Source of the DNA: a virus
IMG/VR virus record: IMGVR_UViG_3300007734_000761
Span: 112,312-176,311 of that record
Strand: one strand, 5' to 3'
DNA: 64,000 nucleotides
Part shown: positions 6,001 through 62,431 of the stretch, piece after piece
Layout: every line of letters begins with the position of its first letter
Numbering within the stretch: position 1 is the first letter of the stretch
Translations under genes and position numbers: made by a program
The notes under the pieces: generated by a model
Databases searched by the model: none
The model's input: only the letters and a program-made list of their open reading frames with translations
What the model was told of the DNA's origin: nothing

Positions 6001-6178
6001 TAACTAATCCTGTTGCTGGATCATATGTTAAATTATATGAGGCTGAAAGATCATTTTCTACTCCAATAAGTGTTAATGGGTTTGAGCCTGAAATTATTAC
6101 ACTCTCACTAATGCTACCTGTAATAGATAAATCATTAGATAAATACCACCCTAACTGTTCTGGTCTTACTCTTGCCAT
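1..6178 (-). CDS. Giant Gly-X-Ser (collagen-like/PPII) repeat protein, probable virion fibre/whisker; 3'-partial, >=2059 aa
   Basis: ATG at 6178 (MARVRPEQLGWYLSNDLSITGS...), 1 nt after the stop of 6180..7409. Frame stays open to the window edge. After ~125 aa it reads G-T-S/G-S-S triplets for ~5.8 kb. Missing from the ORF track because there is no stop in the window. Confidence 0.9.
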   Translation of the reverse strand, partial: MARVRPEQLGWYLSNDLSITGSISESVIISGSNPLTLIGVENDLSASYNLTYDPATGLVSYGIASSGSGGAGFPFSGSAVITGSLLISGSNPFIVLGVSENSSSGYFITYDTSSGQFTYAPIADFSTSGTSGTSGTSGSSGTSGTSGSSGTSGTSGTSGTNGTSGTNGTSGSSGTSGSSGTSGSSGTSGSSGTSGSSGSSGTSGSSGTSGSSGTSGSSGSSGTSGSSGTSGTSGSSGTSGTSGSSGTSGSSGTSGSSGSSGTSGSSGSSGTSGSSGTSGSSGTSGSSGSSGTSGSSGTSGSSGTSGSSGSSGTSGSSGSSGTSGSSGSSGTSGSSGTSGSSGTSGSSGSSGTSGSSGTSGSSGTSGSSGSSGTSGSSGTSGSSGSSGTSGSSGSSGTSGSSGTSGSSGTSGSSGSSGTSGSSGSSGTSGSSGTSGSSGSSGTSGSSGTSGSSGSSGTSGTSGLSGVDGSSGSSGTSGSSGTSGSSGSSGTSGSSGTSGSSGTSGSSGTSGSSGTSGSSGSSGTSGSSGTSGSSGTSGSSGTSGSSGSSGTSGSSGTSGSSGSSGTSGSSGSSGTSGSSGSSGTSGISGINGTSGTSGSSGTSGSSGTSGIDGTSGSSGTSGSSGTSGSSGSSGTSGSSGSSGTSGSSGTSGSSGSSGTSGSSGTSGSSGTSGSSGSSGTSGISGVDGTSGTSGSSGSSGTSGSSGTSGSSGTSGSSGSSGTSGSSGSSGTSGSSGSSGTSGSSGSSGTSGSSGTSGSSGTSGSSGSSGTSGSSGSSGTSGSSGSSGTSGISGVDGTSGTSGSSGTSGSSGTSGSSGTSGSSGSSGTSGSSGSSGTSGSSGSSGTSGSSGTSGSSGTSGSSGSSGTSGSSGTSGSSGSSGTSGSSGSSGTSGSSGTSGSSGTSGSSGSSGTSGSSGTSGSSGTSGSSGSSGTSGSSGSSGTSGSSGTSGISGVDGTSGTSGSSGTSGSSGTAGSSGSSGTSGSSGTSGSSGTSGSSGSSGTSGSSGSSGTSGSSGTSGSSGSSGTSGSSGTSGSSGTSGSSGTSGSSGTSGSSGSSGSSGTSGSSGTSGSSGTSGSSGTSGSSGSSGTSGSSGSSGTSGSSGTSGISGVDGTSGTSGSSGTSGSSGTSGSSGSSGTSGSSGSSGTSGSSGSSGTSGSSGSSGTNGSSGTSGSSGSSGTSGSSGTSGSSGTSGSSGSSGTSGSSGSSGTSGSSGTSGSSGTSGSSGSSGTSGSSGTSGSSGTSGSSGSSGTSGSSGTSGISGVDGTSGTSGSSGTSGSSGTSGSSGTSGSSGSSGTSGSSGSSGTSGSSGSSGTSGSSGTSGSSGTSGSSGSSGTSGSSGSSGTSGSSGTSGSSGTSGSSGSSGTSGSSGSSGTSGSSGSSGSSGSSGTSGSSGTSGSSGSSGTSGSSGSSGTSGISGVNGTSGTSGSSGTSGSSGTSGSSGSSGTSGSSGSSGTSGSSGSSGTSGSSGTSGSSGTSGSSGTSGSSGSSGTSGSSGSSGTSGSSGTSGSSGTSGSSGSSGTSGSSGSSGTSGSSGTSGSSGTSGSSGTSGSSGSSGTSGSSGSSGTSGSSGSSGTSGISGVDGTSGTSGSSGTSGSSGTSGSSGSSGTSGSSGTSGSSGTSGSSGSSGTSGSSGTSGSSGSSGTSGSSGTSGSSGTSGSSGSSGTSGSSGTSGSSGSSGTSGSSGSSGTSGSSGTSGSSGSSGTSGSSGSSGTSGSSGTSGSSGTSGISGVNGTSGTSGSSGSSGTSGSSGTSGSSGTSGSSGTSGSSGSSGTSGSSGSSGTSGSSGTSGSSGSSGTSGSSGTSGSSGSSGTSGSSGSSGTSGSSGSSGTSGSSGTSGISGVNGTSGTSGSSGTSGSSGSSGTSGSSGTSGSSGSSGTSGSSGTSGSSGSSGTSGSSGTSGSSGTSGSSGSSGTSGSSGSSGTSGSSGTSGSSGTSGSSGSSGTSGSSGSSGTSGSSGTSGSSGTSGSSGSSGTSGSSGSSGTSGSSGTSGSSGTSGSSGSSGTSGSSGTSGSSGTSGISGVNGTSGTSGSSGTSGSSGTSGSSGSSGTSGSSGSSGTSGS
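477..620. repeat. Three near-perfect 45-bp tandem copies inside the Gly-X-Ser gene
   Basis: cttgaacctga(t/a)gttcctgaactgccagaagtacctgagcttcca at 477, 522 and 567. Confidence 0.85.
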
Positions 6179-10426: not shown

Positions 10427-12163
10427 TTAAACTACTTGCAAGTCAGCAACTTCGATCTTACCGTAGTAATCAGGACGGAGCATTTTCTTAGCGTAGCGAG
10501 TCATTACACCTTTACGTGGTGTGAATGTTGTAGGATCATAGATCAATGGAGTCATGATCAATGGAACATAAGGAGCATAAACGGCACCAGTTTCCAAGAA
10601 CTGAGTTCCTTTGTAACCCAACAAGATAGTATTCCACTTCATGTAAGGGTTTTTGTACACCTTGTAACGACCATTGATTGAACCGATTTTCTGAACACCA
10701 AATGCATATTTCATTGTTTCTGCATCTGCGTTATCAGCAGCGAATCCAGGGATTGATTCCAAAATAGTAGCAACTGAAGGAGAAATTACCATAAAGTTAG
10801 CACCACCACGTAATGTTTTCTGGTGGATCAAGTTAGAAACTTTTTGTAATTTAATTCCTAAAGTTTGGAACCAAGACATTTGGTTGTAGTAAACACCAGC
10901 TGTATTGCTTGTGAAAGCAGTACCGTTTGAGTTGATTTGATTACCAACTTGAGCACTCCAGTATTGAGTGTTAGAAGCAGCAGCACCTGTGATCAACATA
11001 CCTAAAATTTCAAGGTCAATTTCCATTGAAATTTGCTCAGATAACATTGAAGTCAATTCAGCTTCAGCGTCTAAGTTTTGGTATGCATTCAAGTCTTGAG
11101 CGAATTCAGGAGTCCACTGAGCTTTCAATTTACGAGTTTCAGCAGTAATACTATCAGAAACTAACTTAATGTTTAATTCAGGGAATTCGATGTCGCTATA
11201 TGACTGTACGTTAGGAGATGCTAATGGGTTTCCACCGGCTTCGTAATCACCAACGTTGAATGGGTTCATAGAACCTTGTTTCAAGAAAGTTACTGTTGTA
11301 GCAACGTTAACTGTACTTCCGCTTAACAAACGATTTGCAAGAGCTGCGCTAGAAGCAGATACGTAGAAAGTAGTAGCAGTATTAGTAATTGTAGTGTAAT
11401 CAGCCAAAATACTATTAGCATTAATAGAAGCTGTAGGAGCAACTAAGTAGAAAGCTTGAACACCAAATACGTCTACAGAAGCTGTAGTATAACCGCTAGC
11501 AATACCTTGAGCAATAGCTTGAGCGTTAATTTGAACGTTAGGAATAACTACTTGATAAATTTGACCAGCATTACAAGAGTTAATGTAATTAGAATCGAAA
11601 TTGATTAAGTAGAAGTTTGAACCAGTTGTAATTTGAGTTACAGCAGAAGCAGATACACCAGAAGCTGAGAATTCGTTACGAGAGTATCCAAATCTACCAG
11701 CACCATAGTAACCACCTTCAGCTAAGTTGTCGAAGTTACTGTTACCAAATCCTGGAGCTGGAGTACCATAAAGTGAATCACCAGAAGTAAATGGAGTTTT
11801 AGTAGTACCATACTGGAAGTCCAAGTAGAAAATAAGACCAGTTGGCATTTGCATTGGCTGAACAGAAACGAATTCTTTAGCCACTACTTGTCCAAAAATC
11901 TTACGTACCATTGGAAGAGCAACACCAGCCCATTGGTAACCTTGACCAGTTGTAAAACCAGAAGTAGCACCAGCAGTAGTGTTTGTTTCAACGATAAGTT
12001 CCTTGGCTTGGTTTTCGAGCAACATCGACATGTTTGTTTTGTCGTATCCGCTCAAACCTTCCAATAAACCAGATTTAGCCCATTTGTTTGCTAAACGAGT
12101 CGCGTCGCCTTGCAAAGACTGCCATGGGTTAGCAGATTCGAGAAGTTGATTAATTGTTGACAT
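10427..12163 (-). CDS. Major capsid protein (T4 gp23-like) with Ser/Thr/Ala-rich insertion
   Basis: VSVQPMQMPTGLIFYL, TRKLKAQWTPEFAQDL, YAPYVPL, FTPRKGVMTRY. Confidence 0.95.
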   Translation of the reverse strand: MSTINQLLESANPWQSLQGDATRLANKWAKSGLLEGLSGYDKTNMSMLLENQAKELIVETNTTAGATSGFTTGQGYQWAGVALPMVRKIFGQVVAKEFVSVQPMQMPTGLIFYLDFQYGTTKTPFTSGDSLYGTPAPGFGNSNFDNLAEGGYYGAGRFGYSRNEFSASGVSASAVTQITTGSNFYLINFDSNYINSCNAGQIYQVVIPNVQINAQAIAQGIASGYTTASVDVFGVQAFYLVAPTASINANSILADYTTITNTATTFYVSASSAALANRLLSGSTVNVATTVTFLKQGSMNPFNVGDYEAGGNPLASPNVQSYSDIEFPELNIKLVSDSITAETRKLKAQWTPEFAQDLNAYQNLDAEAELTSMLSEQISMEIDLEILGMLITGAAASNTQYWSAQVGNQINSNGTAFTSNTAGVYYNQMSWFQTLGIKLQKVSNLIHQKTLRGGANFMVISPSVATILESIPGFAADNADAETMKYAFGVQKIGSINGRYKVYKNPYMKWNTILLGYKGTQFLETGAVYAPYVPLIMTPLIYDPTTFTPRKGVMTRYAKKMLRPDYYGKIEVADLQVV

Positions 12164-12182: not shown

Positions 12183-13583
12183 TTATTTTGTAATAATACC
12201 AGCTAATTGTTGCATTCTTGTAATTTGATCATCTGTACTGATAATAGGTGACTTAGCTGTTGTACCACCTACGATACTAGAAGCAAATGATTTGTGTTCT
12301 TTCAAAGTAGTTTTAGAACTTACTTTAGAAGTTTTTACTGTGTTTTTCAATACTTCGTAAATGTTTTTAGCTTCAGTTAAAGTTTGTGCTTTATCAAAGC
12401 TATTAACAACATTTACTTTTTGGTTTTCAGTTAAGTTGCTTGCTTTAAACAATTTATTTACATAAATCAATTTAGCATTTAACAAATTAACTTCATTTAA
12501 TTGGCTACGAAGACTCTTAATTACATTGATTGCTTCTTCTAATTCTTTTTCTTTTTCTTTCTTTTTAGCTTCATCTACTTCTTTAACTTTTTCGTTGAGC
12601 TTCATAGAAAGTTTATTTTTGTAAGCACCATTTAAACCAGATTTCTTGTCACCAGCTGCACCATATGGTGCACCGATTTTGTTTTTAGATTTACCTAAAC
12701 CAAAAGGAGCATTAGCTTTCTTATCGTAAGCTTCGTCTAATTCTTTTTCTTTCTTACCACCTTTGTACTTAGCACGCTCATCAAGCTCTTCTTTTTCTTT
12801 TTTCTTTCTTTCGTAAAGAGCAAATAATTCGTCTAATTCTTCTTCTTTTGACTTTTTCTTTTTAGGTTTTTCTTCAGTCTCTTCTTCGGTTTCGTCTTCG
12901 ATGTCTAAGTCGAATTCATCGTCACCTCCAGCGTCCATGTCCGTCATGTCCATGTCTGTCTCTTCGTCTCCAGCAGCACCAGCTTCACCACCCATGACAG
13001 CTCTAATAGCGTCTTGGATCATGTCGCGAAGTTCGTCTACTGTTACTTCGTCGATGCTCTCACCTCCACTAGCTTTTTCAAACATAGTGTTTTCTTCGAG
13101 TTCTTCTTTACCTTCTTCCATTTCATCATCGCCTTCATAAATTTCATTGGCTTCTTCTTCAAGCTCACGTAAGATTTCTTCAAGATCGTAATCTTCTTCT
13201 AAATCTTCTTCGCTCATTTCAGAATTCATTTCCATCATGTCGTCGTCTTCTTCAGAAAGAGAATTGAAAAGTTCTTCAAGATCGAGTTCTTCCATGTTGT
13301 CATAGTCTTCTTCAAGTTCGTCTTTTCCTTCTTCCATTTCTTCAGTTTCATCTAATGAATCAATGAGATTGTCTTTGTCTACGATGTACGTAGCTTTTTC
13401 TTTAAGCTCTTCCTCTTTCTTTTCTTCTAATTCGTCAGCTTCCATTACACGTCTTTCAAACATGCTCTGAATGCGAGGCATAAAAGATTCTTCAAGGGCG
13501 GCTTTTGCGTTAGCGACGGCAACTTCACGTAAAGTTTTGGCGTCAGCAATTGCGTCTTTAAATAATTGTTGGTTGTTTGACAT
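12183..13583 (-). CDS. Prohead scaffold/core protein (gp22-like)
   Basis: Very acidic coiled coil with many LxE sites, between protease and MCP; ends RMQQLAGIITK. Confidence 0.8.
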   Translation of the reverse strand: MSNNQQLFKDAIADAKTLREVAVANAKAALEESFMPRIQSMFERRVMEADELEEKKEEELKEKATYIVDKDNLIDSLDETEEMEEGKDELEEDYDNMEELDLEELFNSLSEEDDDMMEMNSEMSEEDLEEDYDLEEILRELEEEANEIYEGDDEMEEGKEELEENTMFEKASGGESIDEVTVDELRDMIQDAIRAVMGGEAGAAGDEETDMDMTDMDAGGDDEFDLDIEDETEEETEEKPKKKKSKEEELDELFALYERKKKEKEELDERAKYKGGKKEKELDEAYDKKANAPFGLGKSKNKIGAPYGAAGDKKSGLNGAYKNKLSMKLNEKVKEVDEAKKKEKEKELEEAINVIKSLRSQLNEVNLLNAKLIYVNKLFKASNLTENQKVNVVNSFDKAQTLTEAKNIYEVLKNTVKTSKVSSKTTLKEHKSFASSIVGGTTAKSPIISTDDQITRMQQLAGIITK

Positions 13584-13722: not shown

Positions 13723-14352
13723 TTATTTTATGCAACAAACTCCCGTTTGATTACAAATAATATCTGTAATCAGTGAGTTAATTTTTGAGTATTGGTTAGA
13801 TATTTGTTGAGTGTATTGTTTACCTTCAGCTAAACTTACTGGTTTCATGTAAGCTCCATGTGTACTTGGTGTACTTACAAAATCCCAACATACTAAATCA
13901 AAATCATCTTGTACTTCTACAGTATTTTCGCCTAATTGTTTAACACTACCCATTCCTCTTGAACTAATTCCTACAGTAATGTTATTTAACAATAAATCTT
14001 TTAAAATATTTCCACTAGGTGTATTAAGAATTTCAATACGGCCAAATAAATCATCACCTTCCCATCGTAATTGTTTAATATTGTGACAAACATTTTTTAA
14101 ACTAATAACAGAAGACTCTGGGTGATCTAATTCACCCAAAGCTCTGTTTTGGGCAATCGGGCCTGCAATGTATTTTTCTACTTCTCTATGGAGAATTGCT
14201 TTAGGATAAACACGACCGTTTTCATTTTTGGCATCTGCACGCTGTACAATACCTTCTACCACTAAATTTTTATTAGGGCTCATTTTAGCCTCATTAAGAG
14301 ACTGAGGTGTTGGCTTGAATGCCAAATATTCTATTAAAACTTGTTTAGTCAT
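13723..14352 (-). CDS. Prohead protease (T4 gp21-like)
   Basis: NENGRVYP, ALGELDHP, GISSRGMGS, WDFVSTPS; probable start MTKQVLIE at 14352. Confidence 0.93.
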   Translation of the reverse strand: MTKQVLIEYLAFKPTPQSLNEAKMSPNKNLVVEGIVQRADAKNENGRVYPKAILHREVEKYIAGPIAQNRALGELDHPESSVISLKNVCHNIKQLRWEGDDLFGRIEILNTPSGNILKDLLLNNITVGISSRGMGSVKQLGENTVEVQDDFDLVCWDFVSTPSTHGAYMKPVSLAEGKQYTQQISNQYSKINSLITDIICNQTGVCCIK

Positions 14353-15394
14353 TTGGATCGTTTGGGTTATCAAACTTAGCATTAAAACCTTGATCTGTTA
14401 ATTTTTTAAGTGTACTCATATCTCCAGGTTTTACAGATACTATTCCTCTAGCCATTTCATGTACTAAAGTTAAAATTTGATTTTTAGTAGTAGGAGTTAA
14501 CTTAATTTTTCTAGAGTCTTTTACGTTTACATCTTCGTTTATGTCTTCTTCAAAACCACTTAATGTTCCTCTATTGTAAAATCCTGGGCCGGGTTTATCT
14601 GCTGTTTCTTGATTACTAATTGTGTAATCCATTCCTTCTTCTACACCCTTACTAAGAAGTCTTTCTAAAGCACTAGCTAAATCTTTTTTACCTTCTTCTT
14701 TTAACTTAGCTACTAACTGTTTTAATTTTGCTAATTGTTGTGCAGGAATGCCTTTAGACTCACTCATTGGAGCATCATTAATATTTTTAATAGCTTTCTT
14801 TACTTTATCTTGAATTTCTTCGTCTTTATCGCGTTTTTCAGCGTATTGTCTTAGTAATTTAATGACTTGATTTTTCTTAGCTGTATCTCCTTTAATAGCA
14901 TCTCTAACACTTTTAATAAGTTCTCCGTTATTATCCATAGCGGCTAAATAAGATGCTGGATTAAGTGTATAAACATCATATCCTTCATTTAATTTAGCTG
15001 GTTCCATTCCAGAAGACTTATATTTACCTTTAACTTCGTCTTTAAGACCATATGGAGCGTCTTGTTTATCAGCTTTAGGCATTTTACCATCTTTTTTTAT
15101 GGCTTCAGCACTTTTAGCAGTATTTTTTACTCCAGGTTTTTTACCAGATCCATATTCACCCACCATTTTAATGGTTTCGTTTACTAACATGTTAGTGTAA
15201 AAATTAGGATCTTTTTTAAGATTTTTCAAAACTTTACTTTGGGCTTCTTTGATAGTATCAACGTTAATGGTTTTACCAGAAGTTGTTAATTCATAATCCA
15301 TCCCATTTTCAAATTCGTAAATATTGACTTTGTCTATTTCACGAACTACAGGAGTGATGTATTTATCAAAGTAAGATTTATTAGGATTACTCAT
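14345..15394 (-). CDS. Head-cluster protein, probable prohead core component
   Basis: Lys/Glu-rich with several xxE sites (VNE, LNE, MSE, INE); lies between portal and protease. Confidence 0.5.
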   Translation of the reverse strand: MSNPNKSYFDKYITPVVREIDKVNIYEFENGMDYELTTSGKTINVDTIKEAQSKVLKNLKKDPNFYTNMLVNETIKMVGEYGSGKKPGVKNTAKSAEAIKKDGKMPKADKQDAPYGLKDEVKGKYKSSGMEPAKLNEGYDVYTLNPASYLAAMDNNGELIKSVRDAIKGDTAKKNQVIKLLRQYAEKRDKDEEIQDKVKKAIKNINDAPMSESKGIPAQQLAKLKQLVAKLKEEGKKDLASALERLLSKGVEEGMDYTISNQETADKPGPGFYNRGTLSGFEEDINEDVNVKDSRKIKLTPTTKNQILTLVHEMARGIVSVKPGDMSTLKKLTDQGFNAKFDNPNDPND

Positions 15395-15409: not shown

Positions 15410-15556
15410 TTATCCTTGTCCTACGTATCTTTTTACGTAATTTTTACTAGATTTTGATTTACTTGCTTTTGTTTTAGCATGAATACCAGGGCGTCTACGT
15501 TTAGGTTTTACTTGAAAAACTTTAACTGACGATGTTTTTGTCTTTACCTTTGCCAT
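15410..15556 (-). CDS. Small very basic protein, 48 aa (not in the ORF track)
   Basis: MAKVKTKTSSVKVFQVKPKRRRPGIHAKTKASKSKSSKNYVKRYVGQG; fills the gap and overlaps the end of 15522..16313. Confidence 0.75.
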   Translation of the reverse strand: MAKVKTKTSSVKVFQVKPKRRRPGIHAKTKASKSKSSKNYVKRYVGQG

Positions 15557-16313
15557 TTTCCTTTATTTGTTTTAAATTTTGATACAACGTTGCTGTTTCT
15601 TTCATTAATTGATTTAAATAAGCTTCAGTACGCTTATTGTAAGAAACATTGTTAGTTTCACTTAACTCAGTTTTTAATTGTTTTGTGTAACTAGCGATTT
15701 TGTTTACTTCTTGTAAACGTTTTTTAATTTCTCTAATCGCAACGTGCATCTGTGTAGATGGCTTAACTACTTCAGTTTGTTTTTTAAACTGACTATAACG
15801 TGATTCGTTTAATTCTTGTTTTTTTACTATAGCATCATAATTAGCCATAGTAAGAGTATTTCCTGTACCGCTTAACTTAATAATATTTTCAGTAACATTA
15901 TGAAGATCCATGTCTGTTTTAGCATCTTCACGAGCATATTCTAATAAACGAATAAATAAGGGAACATCAGTTTTAATTGTATCTTTAGGATTAGTAGCTT
16001 CTTTTAAACCACCTTTACCAGCCCAAAGATACTTAGCATCAATCATTTCACTAGGTTTTACTTCTCTATATCCAATACTTGTATATGCACTTAAATCTTT
16101 AGCACCTGGTGTGAATACAGAAGGAATTCCTTTACCATCTTTAGGTGGTTTTTGAAATACTTTTTGTTTAGTTTCGTTTTTTGGTTTTTTACCTTGATGT
16201 TGATAACCAGTACCTGTTTGAAATCCACTTGTAGCACCAGCTCCAGTAGACATTTCCTTTAAGCGATTTTCAGCAAACTTTTTAATTCTTTCTTTAAGTC
16301 GTTTTTTGTCCAT
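15522..16313 (-). CDS. Head-cluster hypothetical protein, probable core/internal protein
   Basis: Segments separated by LKE/LKE/LNE; C-terminal coiled coil. Confidence 0.5.
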   Translation of the reverse strand: MDKKRLKERIKKFAENRLKEMSTGAGATSGFQTGTGYQHQGKKPKNETKQKVFQKPPKDGKGIPSVFTPGAKDLSAYTSIGYREVKPSEMIDAKYLWAGKGGLKEATNPKDTIKTDVPLFIRLLEYAREDAKTDMDLHNVTENIIKLSGTGNTLTMANYDAIVKKQELNESRYSQFKKQTEVVKPSTQMHVAIREIKKRLQEVNKIASYTKQLKTELSETNNVSYNKRTEAYLNQLMKETATLYQNLKQIKENGKGKDKNIVS

Positions 16314-19154: not shown

Positions 19155-20783
19155 TTAAATTAGCCAAGTTAAATCCATCATTTGTCCGTTACCAATATCC
19201 ATACTCCATTGATTGGGAACTCCATTTCCTCCGCCTATTCCTCGGTAACTTCCACCTTGATAAACACCAGGTCCTACAGATGTTGTTGATTTTCCAAAAT
19301 TTTCTAAACTTGCTATAGTTAATTGATCTCCTGTTTGTTTGTATTTAAGACTTGTGTCTCTTAAAAACATACAAATACCTAAAGCCATTACTAAGTCATC
19401 ATGATAACCATCTTGTGCTTGAGCTTTACCATGTTTCCAAATAAATGTTCTTAATTCTTCTAAAGTACGTTTACTTTGAATAGTTACACTTTTTTCATGT
19501 AAATAACTAATCATTTTTCCAATAACTAATGGACGAGTACGTAAAGTTGTACTAAAACCCGGTACCATTCCTTGTCCTGAGTCAAATTTATTTAAGTACA
19601 TTTCTACATTAGTAAGAGCTGCATCTTGTCTTGGACTATAGTACATGTTTGGGTAACCTCTTTCAATTGCTGTTTGAACTACGTCCCATCCTACGTTAGC
19701 ATTTTCAATAACTAATAAAGCATTGTTGTATTCACTAGCTATACCAACTAAAAAATGACCATAATCACGAGTTCCTATTTGTCCTTTATATTCTGCTACT
19801 TGAGTATTAGTTTCTATGTCAAAAACATGAAAAGCGCTGTAATCTTTTCCATCTCCTCGAGCACAGTCAGCAACGACAGCATACATTTTTGAATAATCAG
19901 GTCTTTCAAATACCCAAAGATTACCATCTAAACCTCTACGCTCTAAAGGTTCTTTTGCTTGTATTAAATACCAGTTTAAAATAGCAGGATCAATAGCTGT
20001 GTCACCAGATGTTGTAAAATCACAATCACATTCTTGTGCTGCCATTCTAGGTCCTAAATCTACATCTTGTTGGTCTCTCCAGCTTTGATCTCGCTCAGGG
20101 TGAACATCCCATGGTAATCTTATTGGTAAAAAACTATTTTGACCTTCTTCTGCTTTCACCCAAGTTCTGTGGAACCAGTTTCCTGTGCCGTATGGTGTAG
20201 ACATAGCGATACATCCACCACCCGTCGCCAAGGTTTGTTGGGCAGATACGAATACTTCTTCAATATTATCGATAAATGCAGCCTCGTCAATAAGTAATAA
20301 TGATACGGCTTCACTTCGCGCACTATCACCCGCAGCAGATACAGCTTTCATTTGACTACCGTTTGATAATCGTATACTAAGCTTATTATTTTCTAAAGAT
20401 TTAATTTTCATCCAACTAGGTAAATTATCATATCCAAATTTTACCTTAGTTACCATATTTTTTGCTGTTTCTGTTTTAGTAGCAATACATAACACGTTTT
20501 TATCAGTATGATAAAGCATAAGCCATAAAGCATATGCTGAGCTTAATGTACTGATGCCTAATTGTCTTGATTTATTTACTATATTAAATTTATTTTTTAA
20601 AAATAATCGTAATACGCTTTCTTGAAACGGGTATAAATTAAAATGAACTCTACCTTTAGTAGGGTGCTGAATCATGTAGTATTTTTTACAAAAATAAACA
20701 GGATCTTGCTTACATTTAAGAAGTTCTTGTTGAATTGCTTCTTTTATAGAAAGCTGTTTTGGGATATCATTCAATTCGCTCAT
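19155..20783 (-). CDS. Terminase large subunit (T4 gp17-like)
   Basis: KSRQLGIST Walker A, LLIDEAAF Walker B, STPYG, DYSAF and HDDLVMA nuclease motifs. Confidence 0.95.
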   Translation of the reverse strand: MSELNDIPKQLSIKEAIQQELLKCKQDPVYFCKKYYMIQHPTKGRVHFNLYPFQESVLRLFLKNKFNIVNKSRQLGISTLSSAYALWLMLYHTDKNVLCIATKTETAKNMVTKVKFGYDNLPSWMKIKSLENNKLSIRLSNGSQMKAVSAAGDSARSEAVSLLLIDEAAFIDNIEEVFVSAQQTLATGGGCIAMSTPYGTGNWFHRTWVKAEEGQNSFLPIRLPWDVHPERDQSWRDQQDVDLGPRMAAQECDCDFTTSGDTAIDPAILNWYLIQAKEPLERRGLDGNLWVFERPDYSKMYAVVADCARGDGKDYSAFHVFDIETNTQVAEYKGQIGTRDYGHFLVGIASEYNNALLVIENANVGWDVVQTAIERGYPNMYYSPRQDAALTNVEMYLNKFDSGQGMVPGFSTTLRTRPLVIGKMISYLHEKSVTIQSKRTLEELRTFIWKHGKAQAQDGYHDDLVMALGICMFLRDTSLKYKQTGDQLTIASLENFGKSTTSVGPGVYQGGSYRGIGGGNGVPNQWSMDIGNGQMMDLTWLI

Positions 20784-21193
20784 AACAATACTATTAAAAA
20801 TATACTAATCGCTGCTACTATACCAGTAATTACATAAGATTTACTTAATTTAGTTTGTAAATCACTTATTTGATTTTCTTTTTCTTTTATTACTCCTTTA
20901 TAACTAGTAACTACACTATCATGTCTAGTTTCATTTTTCTTATATAAAGCTATCTGAATATCACCAATTTTTATTGTAGAGTCTTGTGATTTAATTATTT
21001 TATTTTGTGATTTAATAGTATCCCTACAAACAATAAGTTGTTTTTGTAAATAGTCTCGTTCTACTTTTACCTCTAATGCTTTTCTTAAAGCAGAAACTGG
21101 TACTACTACACTAGTATCACTTAAAAGTTTTTGTGAACTTACTGGCAATGTCAGCATTAGACATACCATTAAGACGCTTACGTTCTTCTTCAT
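20780..21193 (-). CDS. Exported coiled-coil protein with C-terminal TM helix (spanin-like?)
   Basis: Signal peptide ending VSS|Q, coiled coil, C-terminal hydrophobic VITGIVAAISIFLIVLL. Confidence 0.5.
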   Translation of the reverse strand: MKKNVSVLMVCLMLTLPVSSQKLLSDTSVVVPVSALRKALEVKVERDYLQKQLIVCRDTIKSQNKIIKSQDSTIKIGDIQIALYKKNETRHDSVVTSYKGVIKEKENQISDLQTKLSKSYVITGIVAAISIFLIVLL

Positions 21194-21458
21194 ATTGTTC
21201 TTTAAATTCTGCGGCTCTTTTAGCTGCTGCTTCTAAATCTTTTTTATCTTTTGCAATTTGAGCAGCTAAAATATTTTTTACTGAGTCTAGGCTAGCTATT
21301 TTTTGTTTATCTTTAGCTATTTCTTTATTCAAGCTATCTATGGTATTATAATATTGTTGTTCTTTATTATTAGAATAACGTGGGGTTGGTTTATGAAACC
21401 AAAAATATAACACAACTATTATAACAACTAAAATCAAAACACTTGATATATTTTTCAT
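21117..21458 (-). CDS. N-anchored coiled-coil membrane protein (i-spanin-like?)
   Basis: N-terminal TM helix followed by a coiled coil; overlaps the next gene by 77 nt. Confidence 0.5.
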   Translation of the reverse strand: MKNISSVLILVVIIVVLYFWFHKPTPRYSNNKEQQYYNTIDSLNKEIAKDKQKIASLDSVKNILAAQIAKDKKDLEAAAKRAAEFKEQYEEERKRLNGMSNADIASKFTKTFK

Positions 21459-21459
21459 A

Positions 21460-21945
21460 TTATAATCCTAAATCAGACATTGTCTTAAGATCATCATTAA
21501 CGTCAAAATCTTCTTCTTCTAATGATGTTCTCCACATGTCAAATTCACTTCTCATAGATTCTTCAGGACTTTTAAATCTTGACATAACATCATTATCAGC
21601 AAATACGCCTGACGTTCCTTTACCATCATCAAATAAATGATATGTCATTCCTTTAATATCTTTAGCAATACCTTTATATTTCATGTATGTTCTTCCTGGT
21701 TCTCCTGAACCTGGCATTCCACCTATATAAACATATTCTTTACCTATTGTTAAATTTTTAGGATCTACTTCATTTAAAGTTTCTTCTTTAAGTTTAACAT
21801 CAGTGTCTTTTAGTTTCATTTCACCAAAAGCATGTTTTTTAAAAGGTACGGCTTCTTGTACATCTTCTACCTCATTTATTGGTAAAGGTTTAAAAGCTTG
21901 TACCATTCTTCTAAATAAATCGTTTGAAAAGTCTATATTGTCCAT
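21460..21945 (-). CDS. Hypothetical protein, probable internal head protein
   Basis: ORF with INE/LNE/LEE sites; ATATTTAT upstream. Confidence 0.5.
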   Translation of the reverse strand: MDNIDFSNDLFRRMVQAFKPLPINEVEDVQEAVPFKKHAFGEMKLKDTDVKLKEETLNEVDPKNLTIGKEYVYIGGMPGSGEPGRTYMKYKGIAKDIKGMTYHLFDDGKGTSGVFADNDVMSRFKSPEESMRSEFDMWRTSLEEEDFDVNDDLKTMSDLGL

Positions 21946-34505: not shown

Positions 34506-34518
34506 ACATATAAATATG

Positions 34519-39906: not shown

Positions 39907-39923
39907 ATTGTGTTATATAAATA

Positions 39924-46983: not shown

Positions 46984-46995
46984 ATATTATAAATA

Positions 46996-55707: not shown

Positions 55708-56997
55708 TTACAAACCAGCTAATCTTTGAAGTCTTTCAAGTAAAGCATTATCTGCGTCATCTGCTGTTTTATCTTGACGCATTTGTTTAAACATGCCTTT
55801 TAATTGATTTAATTGTTGACTAGTAACATTATTATTAATTACATTAGTCATTAATTGAATAAATTCTTTATTTTCTAACTTATAAATATCTTGTAAGAAA
55901 TCATCTCTTTCCTCAGGTGTAACGTTAACTTCTAATTTATTAATTAAGTCTTGTAAGTTTTTAGCAATTAACTGACCATAAGCAATGTCTTCAGGTTCAT
56001 TAGTAATTTTATCAGTAAATTTAACTACTTTTTCTCCTCTTTCTAAATCACTAAATCCAAATAAACCAATAATTTCATACATTCCTTTTACAATTTCTAA
56101 TATAAGAACAGGAAAAACAATAGCTCTTGCTTTAATAATCCATTTTTCTTTTTCAAAATCATAAAATACTGACTCAGCTCCAGTAGCACTAGATTCTAAA
56201 TCAGCTCCACCCATACGCATACCAGCTGCTCCTACTGAAAAATCAATTAAATCAAGAGCAGCCTGCATTAAATCTCTGTATTTATCACTTGTTCCTTGTC
56301 CACCAATAATATCAATGTATTCTTGTTGAATGTAATGAGCTGATTTACTAAATGTAGAAGCGCCTTGCGTAACAGCGTTAATTAATCTTCTTTTTTTTAA
56401 ATCCTCAGCAATGTCATCCATCATTTCTTGTTCTTCTTCTACACTTAATTCATCAATGTCTTCTTCTTGTGGTGAATTTGGTTGTAAAGCTTCTTTAACT
56501 TGTGGTTGAGGAACAATTTTAGCATCAATTTCAATTACATCTTCATTTGACTTTAAATAAGGATAGGCTTCGTATATAACATCGTAGGCTAACTGTTCAA
56601 GTAAATCTTGATTTCCTTGTTCTAACTGCATTACTTGTTGAGCTAACTGCATTAGATTACCCATAATCTGCATTGGGTTTTTACCTTGTATCCTTTGTTT
56701 TACACTACCTTTTAATTTACCTAATGTTTCTGGGTCAAAAACCTTATCATAGTCGGCCTCACTTAATTTATTAAAAGCAGACATGTATCTATCTACAATT
56801 TTTTTCATAACTTCACTTTCTTCTCCCATTAAAGTTTTAGCTTTTGGAGCAGGAGTTGGTGAAGTACTAGGACTAGGAACACTTCTTCTACGAGGAGTAG
56901 GTTTAGTAGGTGTATCTGTATCGGGTTTAGTAACCGGTTTAGTAGGAGCTGGTGCAGTTTGAGGTTCCTCTAACAATAAAGATTTTAACTTGATCAT
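55708..56997 (-). CDS. Putative head-associated protein
   Basis: Leader MIKLKSLLLE, Pro/Thr linker, helical body, C-terminal RLQRLAGL. Confidence 0.6.
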   Translation of the reverse strand: MIKLKSLLLEEPQTAPAPTKPVTKPDTDTPTKPTPRRRSVPSPSTSPTPAPKAKTLMGEESEVMKKIVDRYMSAFNKLSEADYDKVFDPETLGKLKGSVKQRIQGKNPMQIMGNLMQLAQQVMQLEQGNQDLLEQLAYDVIYEAYPYLKSNEDVIEIDAKIVPQPQVKEALQPNSPQEEDIDELSVEEEQEMMDDIAEDLKKRRLINAVTQGASTFSKSAHYIQQEYIDIIGGQGTSDKYRDLMQAALDLIDFSVGAAGMRMGGADLESSATGAESVFYDFEKEKWIIKARAIVFPVLILEIVKGMYEIIGLFGFSDLERGEKVVKFTDKITNEPEDIAYGQLIAKNLQDLINKLEVNVTPEERDDFLQDIYKLENKEFIQLMTNVINNNVTSQQLNQLKGMFKQMRQDKTADDADNALLERLQRLAGL

Positions 56998-57011
56998 ATA
57001 TTATAAATATG

Positions 57012-57728
57012 TTATTCTTCTACAAGTAGTAACTCATTAACAGGTTTTAGTGTTTCTAAGAAATTACTAACTAATTCTTCACTACTAAAATCACTGTCAA
57101 ATTTATTTTTATCGTAAATCCAATTTAAATCAAGAGAAATATTAAAAACAGGAATGTCTACCATAAATTTAATTCTTGGTTGATCTTGAGTATTATCGTC
57201 TAAAATTTCAAAATCTCTTAAAAAACCAACAAAAACTCTATGATCTTTAAAATCAGCTTCTAAAACATAACTAACATCAGTTACAATTAGTATTCTTTTA
57301 TTTTTTAATGAATTTAATTTTTCAAAAAATATATCTAAGTTAGTTTCTCTATAAAGTTCTAAACCTATATTTTTCCAACTATAGTTACGAATTTCTTTTT
57401 CTAAAGTTTCATCAACTTGAGTTTCTTGTTCTATTTCAATTTTACTACTTTCTTCTGGTATACTTTCTACTATTTCATTTAATACTTGATCTAATGTATG
57501 TTCTTCATCCCACTCTACTTCTTCTTCTAATAAAGGTGCTTCTAACCATTCTTTATCTTCTTCTGTTAATTCATATTGTTGAATATTAGAAGTTTCAAAT
57601 AATTTTTTTGGTTCTTTTTCTTGAATTTGAAAAAAATTTGTTGTATTACCTTGATAAGGAGAAATATAACCTAACAGTAAAAATCCTAACAATAATAAAC
57701 CTAAAGATATTAATATAACAATCCACAT
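57012..57728 (-). CDS. Acidic membrane-anchored hypothetical protein
   Basis: N-terminal TM helix; ATATTTAT upstream. Confidence 0.6.
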   Translation of the reverse strand: MWIVILISLGLLLLGFLLLGYISPYQGNTTNFFQIQEKEPKKLFETSNIQQYELTEEDKEWLEAPLLEEEVEWDEEHTLDQVLNEIVESIPEESSKIEIEQETQVDETLEKEIRNYSWKNIGLELYRETNLDIFFEKLNSLKNKRILIVTDVSYVLEADFKDHRVFVGFLRDFEILDDNTQDQPRIKFMVDIPVFNISLDLNWIYDKNKFDSDFSSEELVSNFLETLKPVNELLLVEE

Positions 57729-57745
57729 AACATTTACAATAAATA

Positions 57746-60700
57746 TTATTTAGAAAATGCTTCTATATCAAAACCAGGTTTTAACTTAGCTTTAACAATT
57801 CCCTTACGAGTTTTCATAAATCTATCAAATTGAGGTTCAAATCCACTTCCACGATTTATGTATTTTTTTACTTCAATTTCCCCATCGCTAGTTATGTTAC
57901 CAATTTCATATTTAACATTTGGATCGTTAAATGTTGAGTTAGTATTATCAAGAAAATCTCCTTTATTTAAATAAACAATGTCCCATTTTTGAGGTGCTTT
58001 TACTGTAAACTCGTCATCTGCTTCTTTTAAAGTAGAAACAGCTCTAATTTTAAACCCAGTTCTGTCCATATCTATATTTTCAGCAGTCGACCAGTCAAAA
58101 TCTTCTTCTACCTCAAAGAGACTATCATCAAAGTCAAACATTTCAACTAAGTCTGTGTCCCAATTAATTGAATAATACCATTTAGTAAGATTTTCAGAAG
58201 TAGGATTTCCAGTAAATGGTTTCCAATCAGAATAAGAATATTGTTCTAAATCATTTATATTGACTATTCCTCCTCCATCTCTTTCTACAATAGCTTCTTT
58301 ACCATTTTCATCTTCATACCAGTAAGTATCTTGAAACATAAGTTCAACATCACCATCATATTCCCACCAATCTTTAGGAGCATCAACACTAAAATCTTCT
58401 TCCTCATTCATGTCATCATACCATTCACTAGTTTCATCTTGAGCTCTAATCCATTGTTGAAAATCTTCATATAAATCTCCACTACTTATTCCTTCATAAT
58501 TTCCAAAATCCCCAAAATTAAAAACTTCATCTAAATACACTTCAATAAATTCATCTTCAACCCCATATTTTCTTAAAATACGCGTAACAAATTCATCAAA
58601 ACTTTTATAATATTCATCCTCTCTCATACCTTTAGTAGGTTCCCAATAGTCATAGTTCCATTCTTCAGGTGCATTAACACTAAATTCGTCATCTGATTCT
58701 TCCAAATTATAAGGAACAATTTTATATTGAGGTTTTAAAAACTCATTAACTTCGTCTAAATCAAATGGAGCTTCATTACGTCCTAATTGAACCCACCATC
58801 CACCATCATCTTCTCCTATGTCTTCAATATTTAATGGTTTAGAAATATCAAACCAACTATTAATTTGCTCATATCCCCACATTTCAGGAGTAACTGTATC
58901 TCCAACAGTTAATAATTCAACGTTCCATTCATCTGGAGCGTTAACATTAAAGTCTTCTTCGTTTTCTAATAACTTACTTAATTCAAATACAGGTTTTTGT
59001 ATTTGATATTGAGGTTTTAAAGTATTTTCATTGAAACCATCTAAGCTAAAACCTAATCCTAATTTTATGTCTTTACTTTGTGGTAAGTATTTTCTCCAAC
59101 CTATATCTTGAAATTTAATTCGTACACCCCAAAACTTAGCATCATCTGTAGGCCCAGCTAGATAAATTTTTGTTATTACACCGGGAAAGTCCATTCTAAA
59201 ATCCTCGTCCATTTGCTCTAAAAATATAGGATTTTTAATCATATCTCTAGTGATTTTATCTCCTACTCCTAATTCAATAACGTCCCATTTTTGAGGTGCT
59301 TTAACATCAAATTCATCGTCTATTTCTAATAATTCATTTAAAGAAGTCATTATTCTGTATTTATCATTTAATACGTCTTCATTTATGTAATCAATGCAGA
59401 ATGGTGTATGGTAACCTGATTCAACATGGAGAAGATTAACAGTCCAACATTCATCAAAATAAATGTCTTCTATAAATAATTTTCTTCTTGAAAACCATGT
59501 ATAATCATTACCTTTAGGATTTAACATATTAGAATTAATATAATCTCCTACTCTTAATTCAATAACATCCCACTCAGGTAAAGCATCAACATTGAAGTTT
59601 TCTTCACTTTCTTGTAAATTAGATAAACTAATTCTATATTCAGGTTTTAATAAATCATGAATATCTTCTACAGCGTATGTAACTAAGTCTGATTCTTCAA
59701 ATACTATAAAATTCTCAATTCCATCACTTCCTATCCAATTTATTTTTAAAGGTTTATTAAAAGAAAAATCAAACGTTGATTGTTTAGTTTCTCTTTTATT
59801 CCACATATTAGGTGTAATTGTATCACCTACATTTAAATAATTAATATTCCATGATTTAGGTGCATCAACATTGAAGTTTTCTTCATCTTCATTTAAATTA
59901 AAACGATTAGGCAAGTTAATGTAAGCATTTAATTTAGGACCCCTAGTATTATTAAAATGTTCAACAGTAAATGAATATATTTGGTTTTTGTTGGATACAC
60001 GTCTAAAAGCAATTATATTATGGTCATAATAAGCCGATTTACGGTATTCACCTTCATTAGATCCTATGTATATTATTTCATACGTGAATCCTCTACTATC
60101 TTTAGGAATGTCTTCTTCACGAGTATAAACTTCTCCAATATAATCATCAAAATAGTCTCCAACTTTTAATTCATGTCGGTTCCACTCAGCAGGTGCGTCA
60201 ACATTAAAATCTTCCTCTTCAGTTAAATTTTTATTTTGAACTACTTTAAATTCAGGTTTTAATAAATAGTTAACAAAATCTATATCATACTCTGTAGTAG
60301 TATCACCTAAATCTAAACCAACTAAAGGTTCTTCTTCTTCATTATCAAATTCATTGTAACCAATAGAATCTATTTTTATAGGTTTACTAAAAAAATCCTT
60401 TCTTCTTCCAATTTTATTTTGATCCCACATGTCAGGAGTAATAGTATCTCCAGTTGTTAAGTATTCAACATTCCATTCTTGTGGTGCGTCAACACTAAAT
60501 TCATTTTCACTTTCACGTAATGAAGGTGTAATTATAAAATTATCTTTTAAACGATCATTTAAAGTTTCAATATCAACAAAAATATTTCTTATGTATTTCC
60601 ATTGTCTAGTTGTTCTGTTAGTTCCAGGTATTGGTTCGTCTTTTAATTGAAATACTTTAAGTACTGCTTCATTATGACCCCAAGGAAACAAGGATACCTT

Positions 60701-62359
60701 AAAATCTACAATTTCGAATTTTTTCATCCAATTAATAAGATCATCTTTCCACATGTCAGGAGTAATAATGTCACCTTTACTCAATTCAGTAACATCCCAT
60801 TCTGATGGTGCATCAACATTAAACTCATCCTCATTTGATTCATACATGCCAAAATCTCCAACTACTTTATATTGAGGTAAAAGAAAATCATTAGTAAGTA
60901 TAAAATACAAACCTGCTACTTCAAAATACAACTCATCACCCCTCATCACCCCAGTTATTTTAATAGGTTTACTTGTTAGTTGTTTAAACAAATATTTAGA
61001 TTCGGATTGACCAGTAAAAAAATCATCAATGTCTTTAACCCACATGTCAGGCATAATGTAGTCTCCCTTTTTCAATTCAGTAATATCCCACTCAGCAGGA
61101 GCATCAACATTAAAATCTTCGTCTGACTCTATTAAGTTTTGTTCTATTTTATATTGTGGTTTTAACAAATCATTAATAACATCTATGTCATAATCAAGCG
61201 ACCAATATGGATTATTATGAGCCAACACAACATACGGTCCTTTATCATCTACACCAATGTCAGTTATTTCAGCTGTTTTACCTTGAATGTTAAGATCATA
61301 TTGTTTACTTTGCCACATGTCAGGAGTGATTTGGTCACCAACTCCTAATTCAATGATATTCCAGTCTTCAGGGGCGTCTACATTGAATTCATCTTCAACT
61401 TCATTTAAGTTTTTATTTTGAGTAATTTTAAAACCAGGTTTTAGTCTAGATTGAAGATTACGTAAACCAGCGTGAAAATCAATACTATGTTGTGGCATAA
61501 ATTCTCCATTATAATCTAATGTTCCTTTTCTTACATAAACACTATCACCCACAATCCTTTTTATTAAATAATAGTTTCCTGTAGTGCTATTTTCAGGGGT
61601 AATCAAGTCTCCTACACCTAATTCTTCTACATTCCACTCAGGTGGTGCTGCTACATTGAATTCATCTTCAACTTCATTTAAGTTTTTATTTTGAGTAATT
61701 TTAAACTCAGGCTTCAAACTACCCTGAAGTACAGTTAATGACTCGGTAGATATGTGTCCTACTTCATCCTCTAATTCTACAAAAATTGGATCAAAGTCCT
61801 CTTGTTCTTCATAACCATCCCATTCTTCAAAAAAGCCTATAATTTTGTAAGTCTTATTTATGTCAGTGTCAAGTAAATCCCAAATTAACTTACTTTCTTG
61901 ATTCCACATGTCAGGAGTGATTTGGTCTCCTATACTCAAATATTCAATGTTCCATTCTTCGGGTGCGTCTACATTAAACTCATCTTCACTTTCACTTAAA
62001 TCAGTAGTTACAACTTTATATTTGGGTTTTAAATACTTATTTATTTCACCAAGACCCCAGGTAAGTTGATTATCAAGATATTTTAGGTTCCCTTCGACAC
62101 TATCACCAAATTCAGTAATAACATAATAACCTGCACTTTCTGGATCATCTAAATAATTATCATCATAACCTATTTCTTTTATGTAGAGATCAAAATTATA
62201 ATATTTATATTGATTTTTAAACATATTGGGAGTAATAGTGTCTCCAACTGTTAAGGTTTCAACATTCCACTGTTTAGGTGCTGTGACCGAAAATTCTTCT
62301 TCTTCCCTAAGTATATACGCTAATTTGTTGGTATTGAAAATTTTAGACAGTAAACCCAT
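57746..62359 (-). CDS. 15-module polyprotein with (L/M)xE junctions and a conserved acidic tag
   Basis: 15 copies of (L/M)xE|x(D/E)(D/E/N)F(N/S/T/D)VxAPxxW, 13 followed by LxxGD; variable ~60-90-aa cores. Confidence 0.85.
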   Translation of the reverse strand: MGLLSKIFNTNKLAYILREEEEFSVTAPKQWNVETLTVGDTITPNMFKNQYKYYNFDLYIKEIGYDDNYLDDPESAGYYVITEFGDSVEGNLKYLDNQLTWGLGEINKYLKPKYKVVTTDLSESEDEFNVDAPEEWNIEYLSIGDQITPDMWNQESKLIWDLLDTDINKTYKIIGFFEEWDGYEEQEDFDPIFVELEDEVGHISTESLTVLQGSLKPEFKITQNKNLNEVEDEFNVAAPPEWNVEELGVGDLITPENSTTGNYYLIKRIVGDSVYVRKGTLDYNGEFMPQHSIDFHAGLRNLQSRLKPGFKITQNKNLNEVEDEFNVDAPEDWNIIELGVGDQITPDMWQSKQYDLNIQGKTAEITDIGVDDKGPYVVLAHNNPYWSLDYDIDVINDLLKPQYKIEQNLIESDEDFNVDAPAEWDITELKKGDYIMPDMWVKDIDDFFTGQSESKYLFKQLTSKPIKITGVMRGDELYFEVAGLYFILTNDFLLPQYKVVGDFGMYESNEDEFNVDAPSEWDVTELSKGDIITPDMWKDDLINWMKKFEIVDFKVSLFPWGHNEAVLKVFQLKDEPIPGTNRTTRQWKYIRNIFVDIETLNDRLKDNFIITPSLRESENEFSVDAPQEWNVEYLTTGDTITPDMWDQNKIGRRKDFFSKPIKIDSIGYNEFDNEEEEPLVGLDLGDTTTEYDIDFVNYLLKPEFKVVQNKNLTEEEDFNVDAPAEWNRHELKVGDYFDDYIGEVYTREEDIPKDSRGFTYEIIYIGSNEGEYRKSAYYDHNIIAFRRVSNKNQIYSFTVEHFNNTRGPKLNAYINLPNRFNLNEDEENFNVDAPKSWNINYLNVGDTITPNMWNKRETKQSTFDFSFNKPLKINWIGSDGIENFIVFEESDLVTYAVEDIHDLLKPEYRISLSNLQESEENFNVDALPEWDVIELRVGDYINSNMLNPKGNDYTWFSRRKLFIEDIYFDECWTVNLLHVESGYHTPFCIDYINEDVLNDKYRIMTSLNELLEIDDEFDVKAPQKWDVIELGVGDKITRDMIKNPIFLEQMDEDFRMDFPGVITKIYLAGPTDDAKFWGVRIKFQDIGWRKYLPQSKDIKLGLGFSLDGFNENTLKPQYQIQKPVFELSKLLENEEDFNVNAPDEWNVELLTVGDTVTPEMWGYEQINSWFDISKPLNIEDIGEDDGGWWVQLGRNEAPFDLDEVNEFLKPQYKIVPYNLEESDDEFSVNAPEEWNYDYWEPTKGMREDEYYKSFDEFVTRILRKYGVEDEFIEVYLDEVFNFGDFGNYEGISSGDLYEDFQQWIRAQDETSEWYDDMNEEEDFSVDAPKDWWEYDGDVELMFQDTYWYEDENGKEAIVERDGGGIVNINDLEQYSYSDWKPFTGNPTSENLTKWYYSINWDTDLVEMFDFDDSLFEVEEDFDWSTAENIDMDRTGFKIRAVSTLKEADDEFTVKAPQKWDIVYLNKGDFLDNTNSTFNDPNVKYEIGNITSDGEIEVKKYINRGSGFEPQFDRFMKTRKGIVKAKLKPGFDIEAFSK
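61378..61705. repeat. Exact 55-bp direct repeat flanking module 3 of the polyprotein
   Basis: ctacattgaattcatcttcaacttcatttaagtttttattttgagtaattttaaa at 61378-61432 and 61651-61705. Confidence 0.9.
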
Positions 62360-62431
62360 TCCACGTATAAATATTTAAAAATAGTAAAACAATGGCGCTT
62401 TTTTACTTAACTTTTAAGTACGTATATACCT

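Follow-up and report, generated by a model that had tools for sequence, protein, structure and literature searches.

The window described here, 64,000 nucleotides in length, is the final 64 kb of a 176,311-bp virus record (IMGVR_UViG_3300007734_000761) rated complete, and carries a long, acidic, modular gene which we refer to as the polyprotein gene (Table 1). It lies on the minus strand; an earlier note, made from the sequence alone, had described the gene and named no strand. The record possesses a T4-type head module comprising a capsid protein of the Gp23 family (PF07068, 1.3e-76), an S77 protease, a portal and a large terminase. The nearest isolate is Flavobacterium phage vB_FspM_immuto, with a capsid identity of 49%.

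Table 1. The polyprotein gene, its parts and associated features of the window
Feature	Position	Strand	Remarks
Polyprotein open reading frame (ORF), 1537 residues, isoelectric point (pI) ~4.2	57746..62359	-	One ORF; sole joint-profile match in genome
Leader, 19 residues, MGLLSKIFNTNKLAYILRE, closing with the first LxE site	62303..62359	-	KLAYILRE at residues 12-19
Modules 1-12, canonical	58697..62302	-	Lower boundaries 61991, 61673, 61400, 61127, 60839, 60512, 60218, 59888, 59609, 59324, 58964, 58697
Module 13, non-canonical core, net charge -22, 21% aromatic	58403..58696	-	Without Pfam or ESM Atlas lead
Module 14, non-canonical alpha+beta core, net charge -26	58022..58402	-	82-96% in close relatives, among the most conserved modules
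Module 15, canonical, C-terminal, pI 6.5	57749..58021	-	86-95% in close relatives
Promoter-like motif AATATTTATA, 6 nt before the polyprotein ATG	62366..62375	-	
Prohead protease, T4 gp21 family, presumed cutter	13723..14382	-	Peptidase_S77 (PF03420) 5.7e-31; phrog_207 4.7e-57
Syntenic downstream gene, N-terminal membrane helix and acidic body	57012..57728	-	Directly after the polyprotein in relative loci L014-L016, L018, L024, L026
Syntenic downstream 429-residue cargo-type gene, leader MIKLKSLLLE	55708..56997	-	Pro/Thr-rich stretch follows leader

The earlier note had claimed a 19-residue leader followed by 15 modules, each behind an (L/M)xE tripeptide and a shared acidic tag. This is borne out by a regular expression for the tag, which finds 15 copies, with Phe at residues 23, 128, 234, 325, 416, 513, 621, 718, 829, 922, 1017, 1137, 1226, 1323 and 1451. 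The tag of each module reads as an acidic D/E-F-x-V-x-A-P-x-x-W, and F, V, A and W are invariant in 15/15 copies of the module alignment. The tripeptides ahead of it are LRE, LSE, LNE, LNE, LIE, MYE, LRE, LTE, LNE, LQE, LLE (with LNE before it), LLE, LEE, MNE and LKE, exactly as listed before. When the cut is placed after the nearest upstream (L/M)xE, the modules are 89-127 residues in length and 10.3-15.1 kDa in mass, with pI values from 4.05 to 5.1, the last module (6.5) excepted. LxxGD follows the tag in 13/15 modules, and LKPx(Y/F)x(I/V) forms the C-terminal end of most; modules 13 and 14 have neither and are the most acidic (28-30% D+E), in agreement with the 13 LxxGD modules, the usual LKPx(Y/F)x end and the very acidic, unrelated cores of modules 13 and 14 reported earlier. 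The polyprotein contains 33 [LIM]xE tripeptides where about 26 are expected from its composition; because this total is unremarkable, it is the fixed position of the sites that matters.

A word-index search returned 50 related proteins of 865-2,521 residues, all metagenomic, and an exhaustive profile search of 1.84 billion representatives returned 108 relatives at E <=0.001, from which we regard the family as narrow. The joint profile finds 7-25 joints per protein in the first 50 relatives, and over the relatives, at least 108 in number and metagenomic, the count of modules runs from 1 to 25. Joint statistics were taken from 273 joints of relatives, dereplicated at 60% identity, over 50 columns. 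The LxE sites, which were expected to be kept in homologues if they are cut, are indeed kept: Glu occupies P1 in 97% (4.06 bits, more than any other of the 50 columns), and P3 is Leu, Ile or Met in 95% (77%, 13% and 5%, respectively). Positions P2, P4 and P5 hold <=1.3 bits, that is, a variable linker surrounds P3 and P1. Lineages with diverged tags retain [LIV]xE ahead of them, for example before QDEDDDFNITTDSFDV, SFSLSDDDLELAKDFNV and DDFEFTDxDKDLA. Within the polyprotein gene the DNA copies of the joint are only 60-83% identical to each other, a 55-nt repeat at module 3 aside, and therefore the peptide, rather than the DNA, is conserved.

Complete proteins consisting of a leader, LxE, the tag and one module also exist (P0113, P0137, P0140, P0143, P0152 and others), which indicates that the unit is an address tag, a cut site and a module, and that the polyprotein is a concatenation keeping one cut site per unit. 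These true solo modules come from the exhaustive profile search; short word-index "homologues" of 100-220 residues were rejected as free modules, being end fragments of polyproteins. Also rejected as a relative was P0105, a 2,395-residue Bacteroidota surface protein, whose half-module match falls in a Thr/Ser-rich repeat and was judged compositional. An in-frame TAG which splits the polyprotein of locus L004 (8003-8005) is missing from L003, which differs by 3 nt in 20 kb, and is put down to polymorphism or error. Neither megablast nor tblastn, run with the region and the protein on 50,697 phage records, produced a hit. Viral contigs scanned by word pattern yielded nothing for the whole protein, and the module alignment picked out two near-identical loci only.

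Six proteins of the phage start with MIK(L/F)xx(I/L)LxE and a seventh with the variant MINLQSLLLE. Across the 60,534 residues encoded by the ORFs of the genome, K[LF]..[IL]L.E has seven occurrences: six belong to the MIK(L/F) leaders, at residue 3, and the remaining one is KLAYILRE of the polyprotein, which sits directly before the first tag and resembles the capsid targeting sequence (CTS) of T4 in pattern only. Judged from its sequence, the polyprotein leader is a member of the phage's own putative capsid-tag family. Because the variant MINLQSLLLE heads a Zeta-toxin-like P-loop kinase, this kind of leader is not part of a fibre or decoration protein. Relatives of the polyprotein show three leader classes, the two non-MIKL classes being MxxNFD(I/L)HxW...LxE and MxNFD(I/L)KKFL(I/V)ENK...LxE; both also head unrelated proteins of this genome (29449-30075, 36294-36779 and one gene upstream of the window).

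On the coding strand, the core of the promoter-like motif, TATTTATA, precedes 27 ORF starts genome-wide by 2-26 nt (mostly 3-21), and these ORFs include structural genes as well as cargo genes with a leader. In the form (A)ATATTTATA, as at 62366-62373, 57002-57009, 46988-46995, 39916-39923 and 34509-34516, it reads as the T4 late box in reverse complement and is a candidate late promoter. Its presence before both the polyprotein and the structural genes fits their co-expression. The T4 late promoter TATAAATA in its forward sense was tried and rejected, as it is not enriched on the coding strand, where its reverse complement recurs.

Module 12 was modelled with 16 residues before it and 14 after it, from an alignment of 53 extended modules. 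The model has a confident core of strands and one helix (residues 29-100, with a block-mean predicted local distance difference test score, pLDDT, of 79-92), while the joints lie at 44-53 and 60 and the tag is coil-like at about 71. The best fold match, FeoA, is weak (Z 3.8, root-mean-square deviation 3.1 over 60 residues), followed by DtxR-type SH3-like domains and CarD/Tudor barrels; Foldseek found no match at E <=1e-3 in PDB and BFVD. From the model of module 12, the canonical cores may be small SH3-like barrels, as had been expected of structure prediction, although the fold matches are weak. Module 14 models as an alpha+beta domain at pLDDT 72, its five models disagreeing and tag residues 1-12 falling below 50, and its fold search gave no match (Z <=3.6); ESM Atlas provided no usable lead for modules 13 and 14. 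The tag, which is retained on unrelated cores, models as a flexible tail.

Among PHROGs only phrog_38432, of unknown function, was matched (5e-4). The Pfam YodL-like family (PF14191) scores 32.5 bits over the whole protein (cut-off 24); its best single stretch reaches 16.4 bits, none passes, and the matches span joints. For modules taken singly this YodL lead does not stand, 0/15 matching alone and the signal being a sum of sub-threshold, joint-spanning matches. Pfam searches of the polyprotein (P0001) and six relatives revealed this weak YodL signal only, and no peptidase domain.

Module number and order were compared in relatives, as the earlier note had proposed. Close relatives are collinear with the polyprotein and differ by whole modules; in the 20-module relative P0002, the counterparts of modules 5 and 6 of the polyprotein are separated by five modules (6-10), and a more distant relative has matching modules in a different order. 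Matched modules of a single protein pair are between 53 and 99% identical, and the first and last modules are conserved among relatives. At loci L014-L016 and L018 the flanking genes are mostly 73-99% identical to those of the window, as against 44-63% for the polyprotein. An exact 55-nt direct repeat (61378-61432 and 61651-61705, period 273 nt) flanks module 3 and looks like the end-point of a recent duplication or exchange. By these alignments, whole modules are gained, lost and exchanged among relatives, and this turnover suggests a repertoire of host-directed binders. A Lys-rich repeat is another cassette in relatives. Relative P0032 (2213 residues) has three consecutive cassettes of 20-residue leucine-rich repeat (LRR)-like repeats (…NTxITSLPDxLxVGG…) behind the usual joint, recognized by eye and not called by Pfam. 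In relative P0078 (614 residues), three modules and a joint of LNE followed by SE precede a SprA_N-like segment (1.7e-66; type IX secretion translocon of Bacteroidota), which points to a cassette of host origin or to a chimeric assembly.

The earlier note had placed a gp21 homologue at 13723-14352; the S77 protease is present, while the ORF ends at 14382. Its N-terminus has LIE at residues 16-18 and LNE at 29-31, echoing the LIE-9 site discussed for T4 gp21. A further gene of the head module, 12183-13583, encodes an acidic scaffold-like protein with 33 [LIM]xE sites. The capsid protein (10427-12163; …ELIVE followed by TNTTAGATSGF…) and a 263-residue head-region protein (15522-16313; …RLKE followed by MSTGAGATSGF…) have in common TxAGATSGFxTGxGYQ right after (I/L)xE, and the sites before TxAGATSGF in both are likely propeptide cut sites, laid out like those of T4.

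Relatives conserve the gene order in which the polyprotein is followed by the membrane-anchored acidic protein and then by the MIKL-tagged protein. The MIKL-tagged protein ends in LLERLQRLAGL, akin to the C-terminus TRMQQLAGIITK of the scaffold-like protein (RMQQLAGII). The upstream neighbour of the polyprotein is a ConA/Laminin_G-like structural protein. At a relative locus (L025:1065-2219) a 384-residue protein with one module-type joint lies two ORFs upstream of the large terminase gene; the counterpart of this stretch in the window (20780-21945) holds small unrelated ORFs. At the start of the window (1-6178), about 6 kb is open on both strands over a highly repetitive gene.

We consider it somewhat more probable than the contrary (about 0.55) that the polyprotein is a head-targeted precursor cut by the S77 prohead protease at every joint. 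Evidence for this from sequence and models includes the following: the cassettes are heterogeneous (SH3-like, two unrelated acidic folds, LRR-like and SprA_N-like) yet share the joint; a confident core is flanked by joints and a tag modelled as coil of low confidence; and the joint motif matches the published specificity of gp21. T4 gp21 cuts after Glu in (L/I)xE, and residues 8 and 10 of the CTS govern processing, Asp at position 10 blocking it (PMC9026906); T4 Alt is cut at ITE-6 and LTE-619 (PMC5694885). For the polyprotein, the leader with its capsid-tag octapeptide would carry the chain into the prohead core, where the gp21-family protease would cleave after the Glu of each (L/I/M)xE joint. 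Some 15 acidic proteins, small (10-15 kDa) and for the most part SH3-like barrels, would be freed in this way, each with an acidic N-terminal tail, and folded pieces of this size would stay inside the capsid and exit with the DNA. The tag could be an ejection or docking signal, or equally serve prime-side recognition by the protease. What stands of the packaged, protease-cut cargo envisaged earlier is the T4-type head with its S77 protease, the conservation of the joint motif, the capsid-tag leader, the promoter-like motif, module exchange and the cores as modelled (SH3-like); targeting, cutting, capsid retention, injection and function, be it anti-defence or DNA mimicry, are what we infer beyond these.

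Several observations weigh against this reading. The strong acidity of the modules (pI 4.0-5.1) contrasts with the basic internal proteins of T4. An LxE site would require far less conservation than the 10-residue acidic tag shows, and the joint may have a different purpose. The leader motif lies at residues 12-19, not 3-10, with 11 extra residues ahead of it. To our knowledge, a precursor of 180-290 kDa far exceeds any known CTS cargo. The low pLDDT of the joints is partly an end effect, these being at the ends of the modelled constructs. Finally, vB_FspM_immuto, the nearest isolate to a freshwater source phage that is itself uncultured, has no match to the module profile.

The product might instead be an accessory prohead-core or filler protein, targeted and cut in the same manner, whose acidic pieces help to set core volume, charge balance or head size during assembly and are afterwards lost or inert. 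We think this unlikely, although its composition is like that of the acidic scaffold with its many [LIM]xE sites, the first and last modules are conserved, and acidity is unlike the injected internal proteins of T4. A filler does not readily account for 7-25 modules among multi-module relatives, whole-module swaps and heterogeneous folds, nor for a gene that diverges so much faster than its neighbours, and folded domains of 10-15 kDa would be unlikely to leave a closed shell.

Without any cutting, the chain could be a tandem-domain virion protein (decoration protein, whisker or adhesin) in which the joint is a conserved structural linker. In its favour, the majority of modules form a tandem array of homologous small barrels comparable to Hoc-like repeat proteins, the gene has a ConA/Laminin_G-like structural neighbour upstream, and tag conservation extends past LxE. 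We nevertheless hold this to be rather unlikely: the leader also heads a kinase-like enzyme and further cargo candidates of non-structural type, some leader-bearing proteins have a single module only, unrelated folds are inserted behind the same joint, P3 and P1 alone are conserved in the linker, and there is no signal peptide, nor was a trimerisation or fibre motif seen. Very unlikely, in our judgement, is a late protein outside the virion, whose joints persist chiefly because cassettes are shuffled there by recombination, or are cleaved by another protease. The exact 55-nt repeat flanking module 3, the gain and loss of whole modules and the mosaic identity are what such a protein would display, but the peptide motif is kept where the joint DNA has diverged, it persists in lineages with different tags, and the link of the leader to the capsid-tag family would be left unexplained.

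For a head-targeted, cut precursor the closest known counterparts are T4 IPI, IPII, IPIII and Alt with their CTS (PMC9026906, PMC3012670, PMC5694885), which likewise combine a protease of the gp21 family with a short N-terminal leader that closes in (L/I)xE; the leader here spaces its hydrophobic residues as the T4 CTS does (positions 4, 7 and 8, with Glu at 10). In both systems the products are small (8-20 kDa in T4; 10-15 kDa, predicted, here) and the cargo varies widely, with little conservation from one related phage to the next. T4 has one gene per protein, whereas here 15 units share one ORF, every joint being marked by a cut motif; the T4 proteins are basic and these units strongly acidic, with a conserved acidic tail per unit and the additional residues before the leader motif; and the T4 internal proteins have no sequence homology to the modules of a polyprotein known from sequence alone. 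By analogy, the polyprotein would work like the T4 CTS/internal-protein system, with two of its descriptive features, basic units and one protein per gene, failing here. T4 gp22, an acidic prohead-core protein with many protease sites, is cut by gp21 into short fragments that exit the head (PMC5694885), and the phage's 12183-13583 gene is of that kind. Unlike the helical gp22 with its short fragments, the polyprotein has sites spaced to free whole folded domains.

The polyvalent proteins of Iyer, Burroughs, Anand, de Souza and Aravind (2017, PMC5512222) are also single polypeptides of mobile elements with up to ~15 domains, for which entry into the host with DNA and processing into units have been proposed. 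Their signature domains (MuF, ArdC-N, methylase/helicase, MPTase and others) and embedded zincin-like peptidase were not found here by Pfam, and among them YodL domains are reported only in proteins of conjugative elements (PMC5512222). Their units are varied enzymes, whereas most units here are paralogous small barrels, and it would be the head protease, acting in trans on a recurring linker motif, that processed them. The giant phages phiKZ, 201phi2-1 and SPN3US (PMC5694885, PMC9026906) possess many paralogous head proteins, varying in number between relatives and cleaved after Glu by a gp21-related protease, but as separate genes with their own propeptides; here they are fused head to tail in frame. 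A description of such a polyprotein was not found in the full-text literature searched.

We tentatively go one step further and propose an expandable, recombination-shuffled magazine of injected mini-binders, a possibility that we hold to be doubtful as it stands. The head protease would divide the product of one late gene, loaded by a single address tag, into 7-25 different small acidic proteins (SH3-like, LRR-like and others), each directed against a different host defence or takeover target, with cassettes swapped between phages at the conserved joints. This would be the viral counterpart of a variable binder repertoire, pre-made and delivered with the genome.

If cutting and packaging are true, the arrangement would be a natural design for multi-cargo loading of phage capsids, and the modules a set of ~10-kDa binder domains for testing against the defence systems of aquatic Bacteroidota. 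A leader followed by repeated (L/I)xE joints would then be a sequence rule for recognizing virion cargo in uncultured phages. The load of pre-made proteins that T4-type phages deliver could far exceed the few internal proteins known from T4, with one address tag per chain and with cargo gained or swapped by recombination of whole cassettes.

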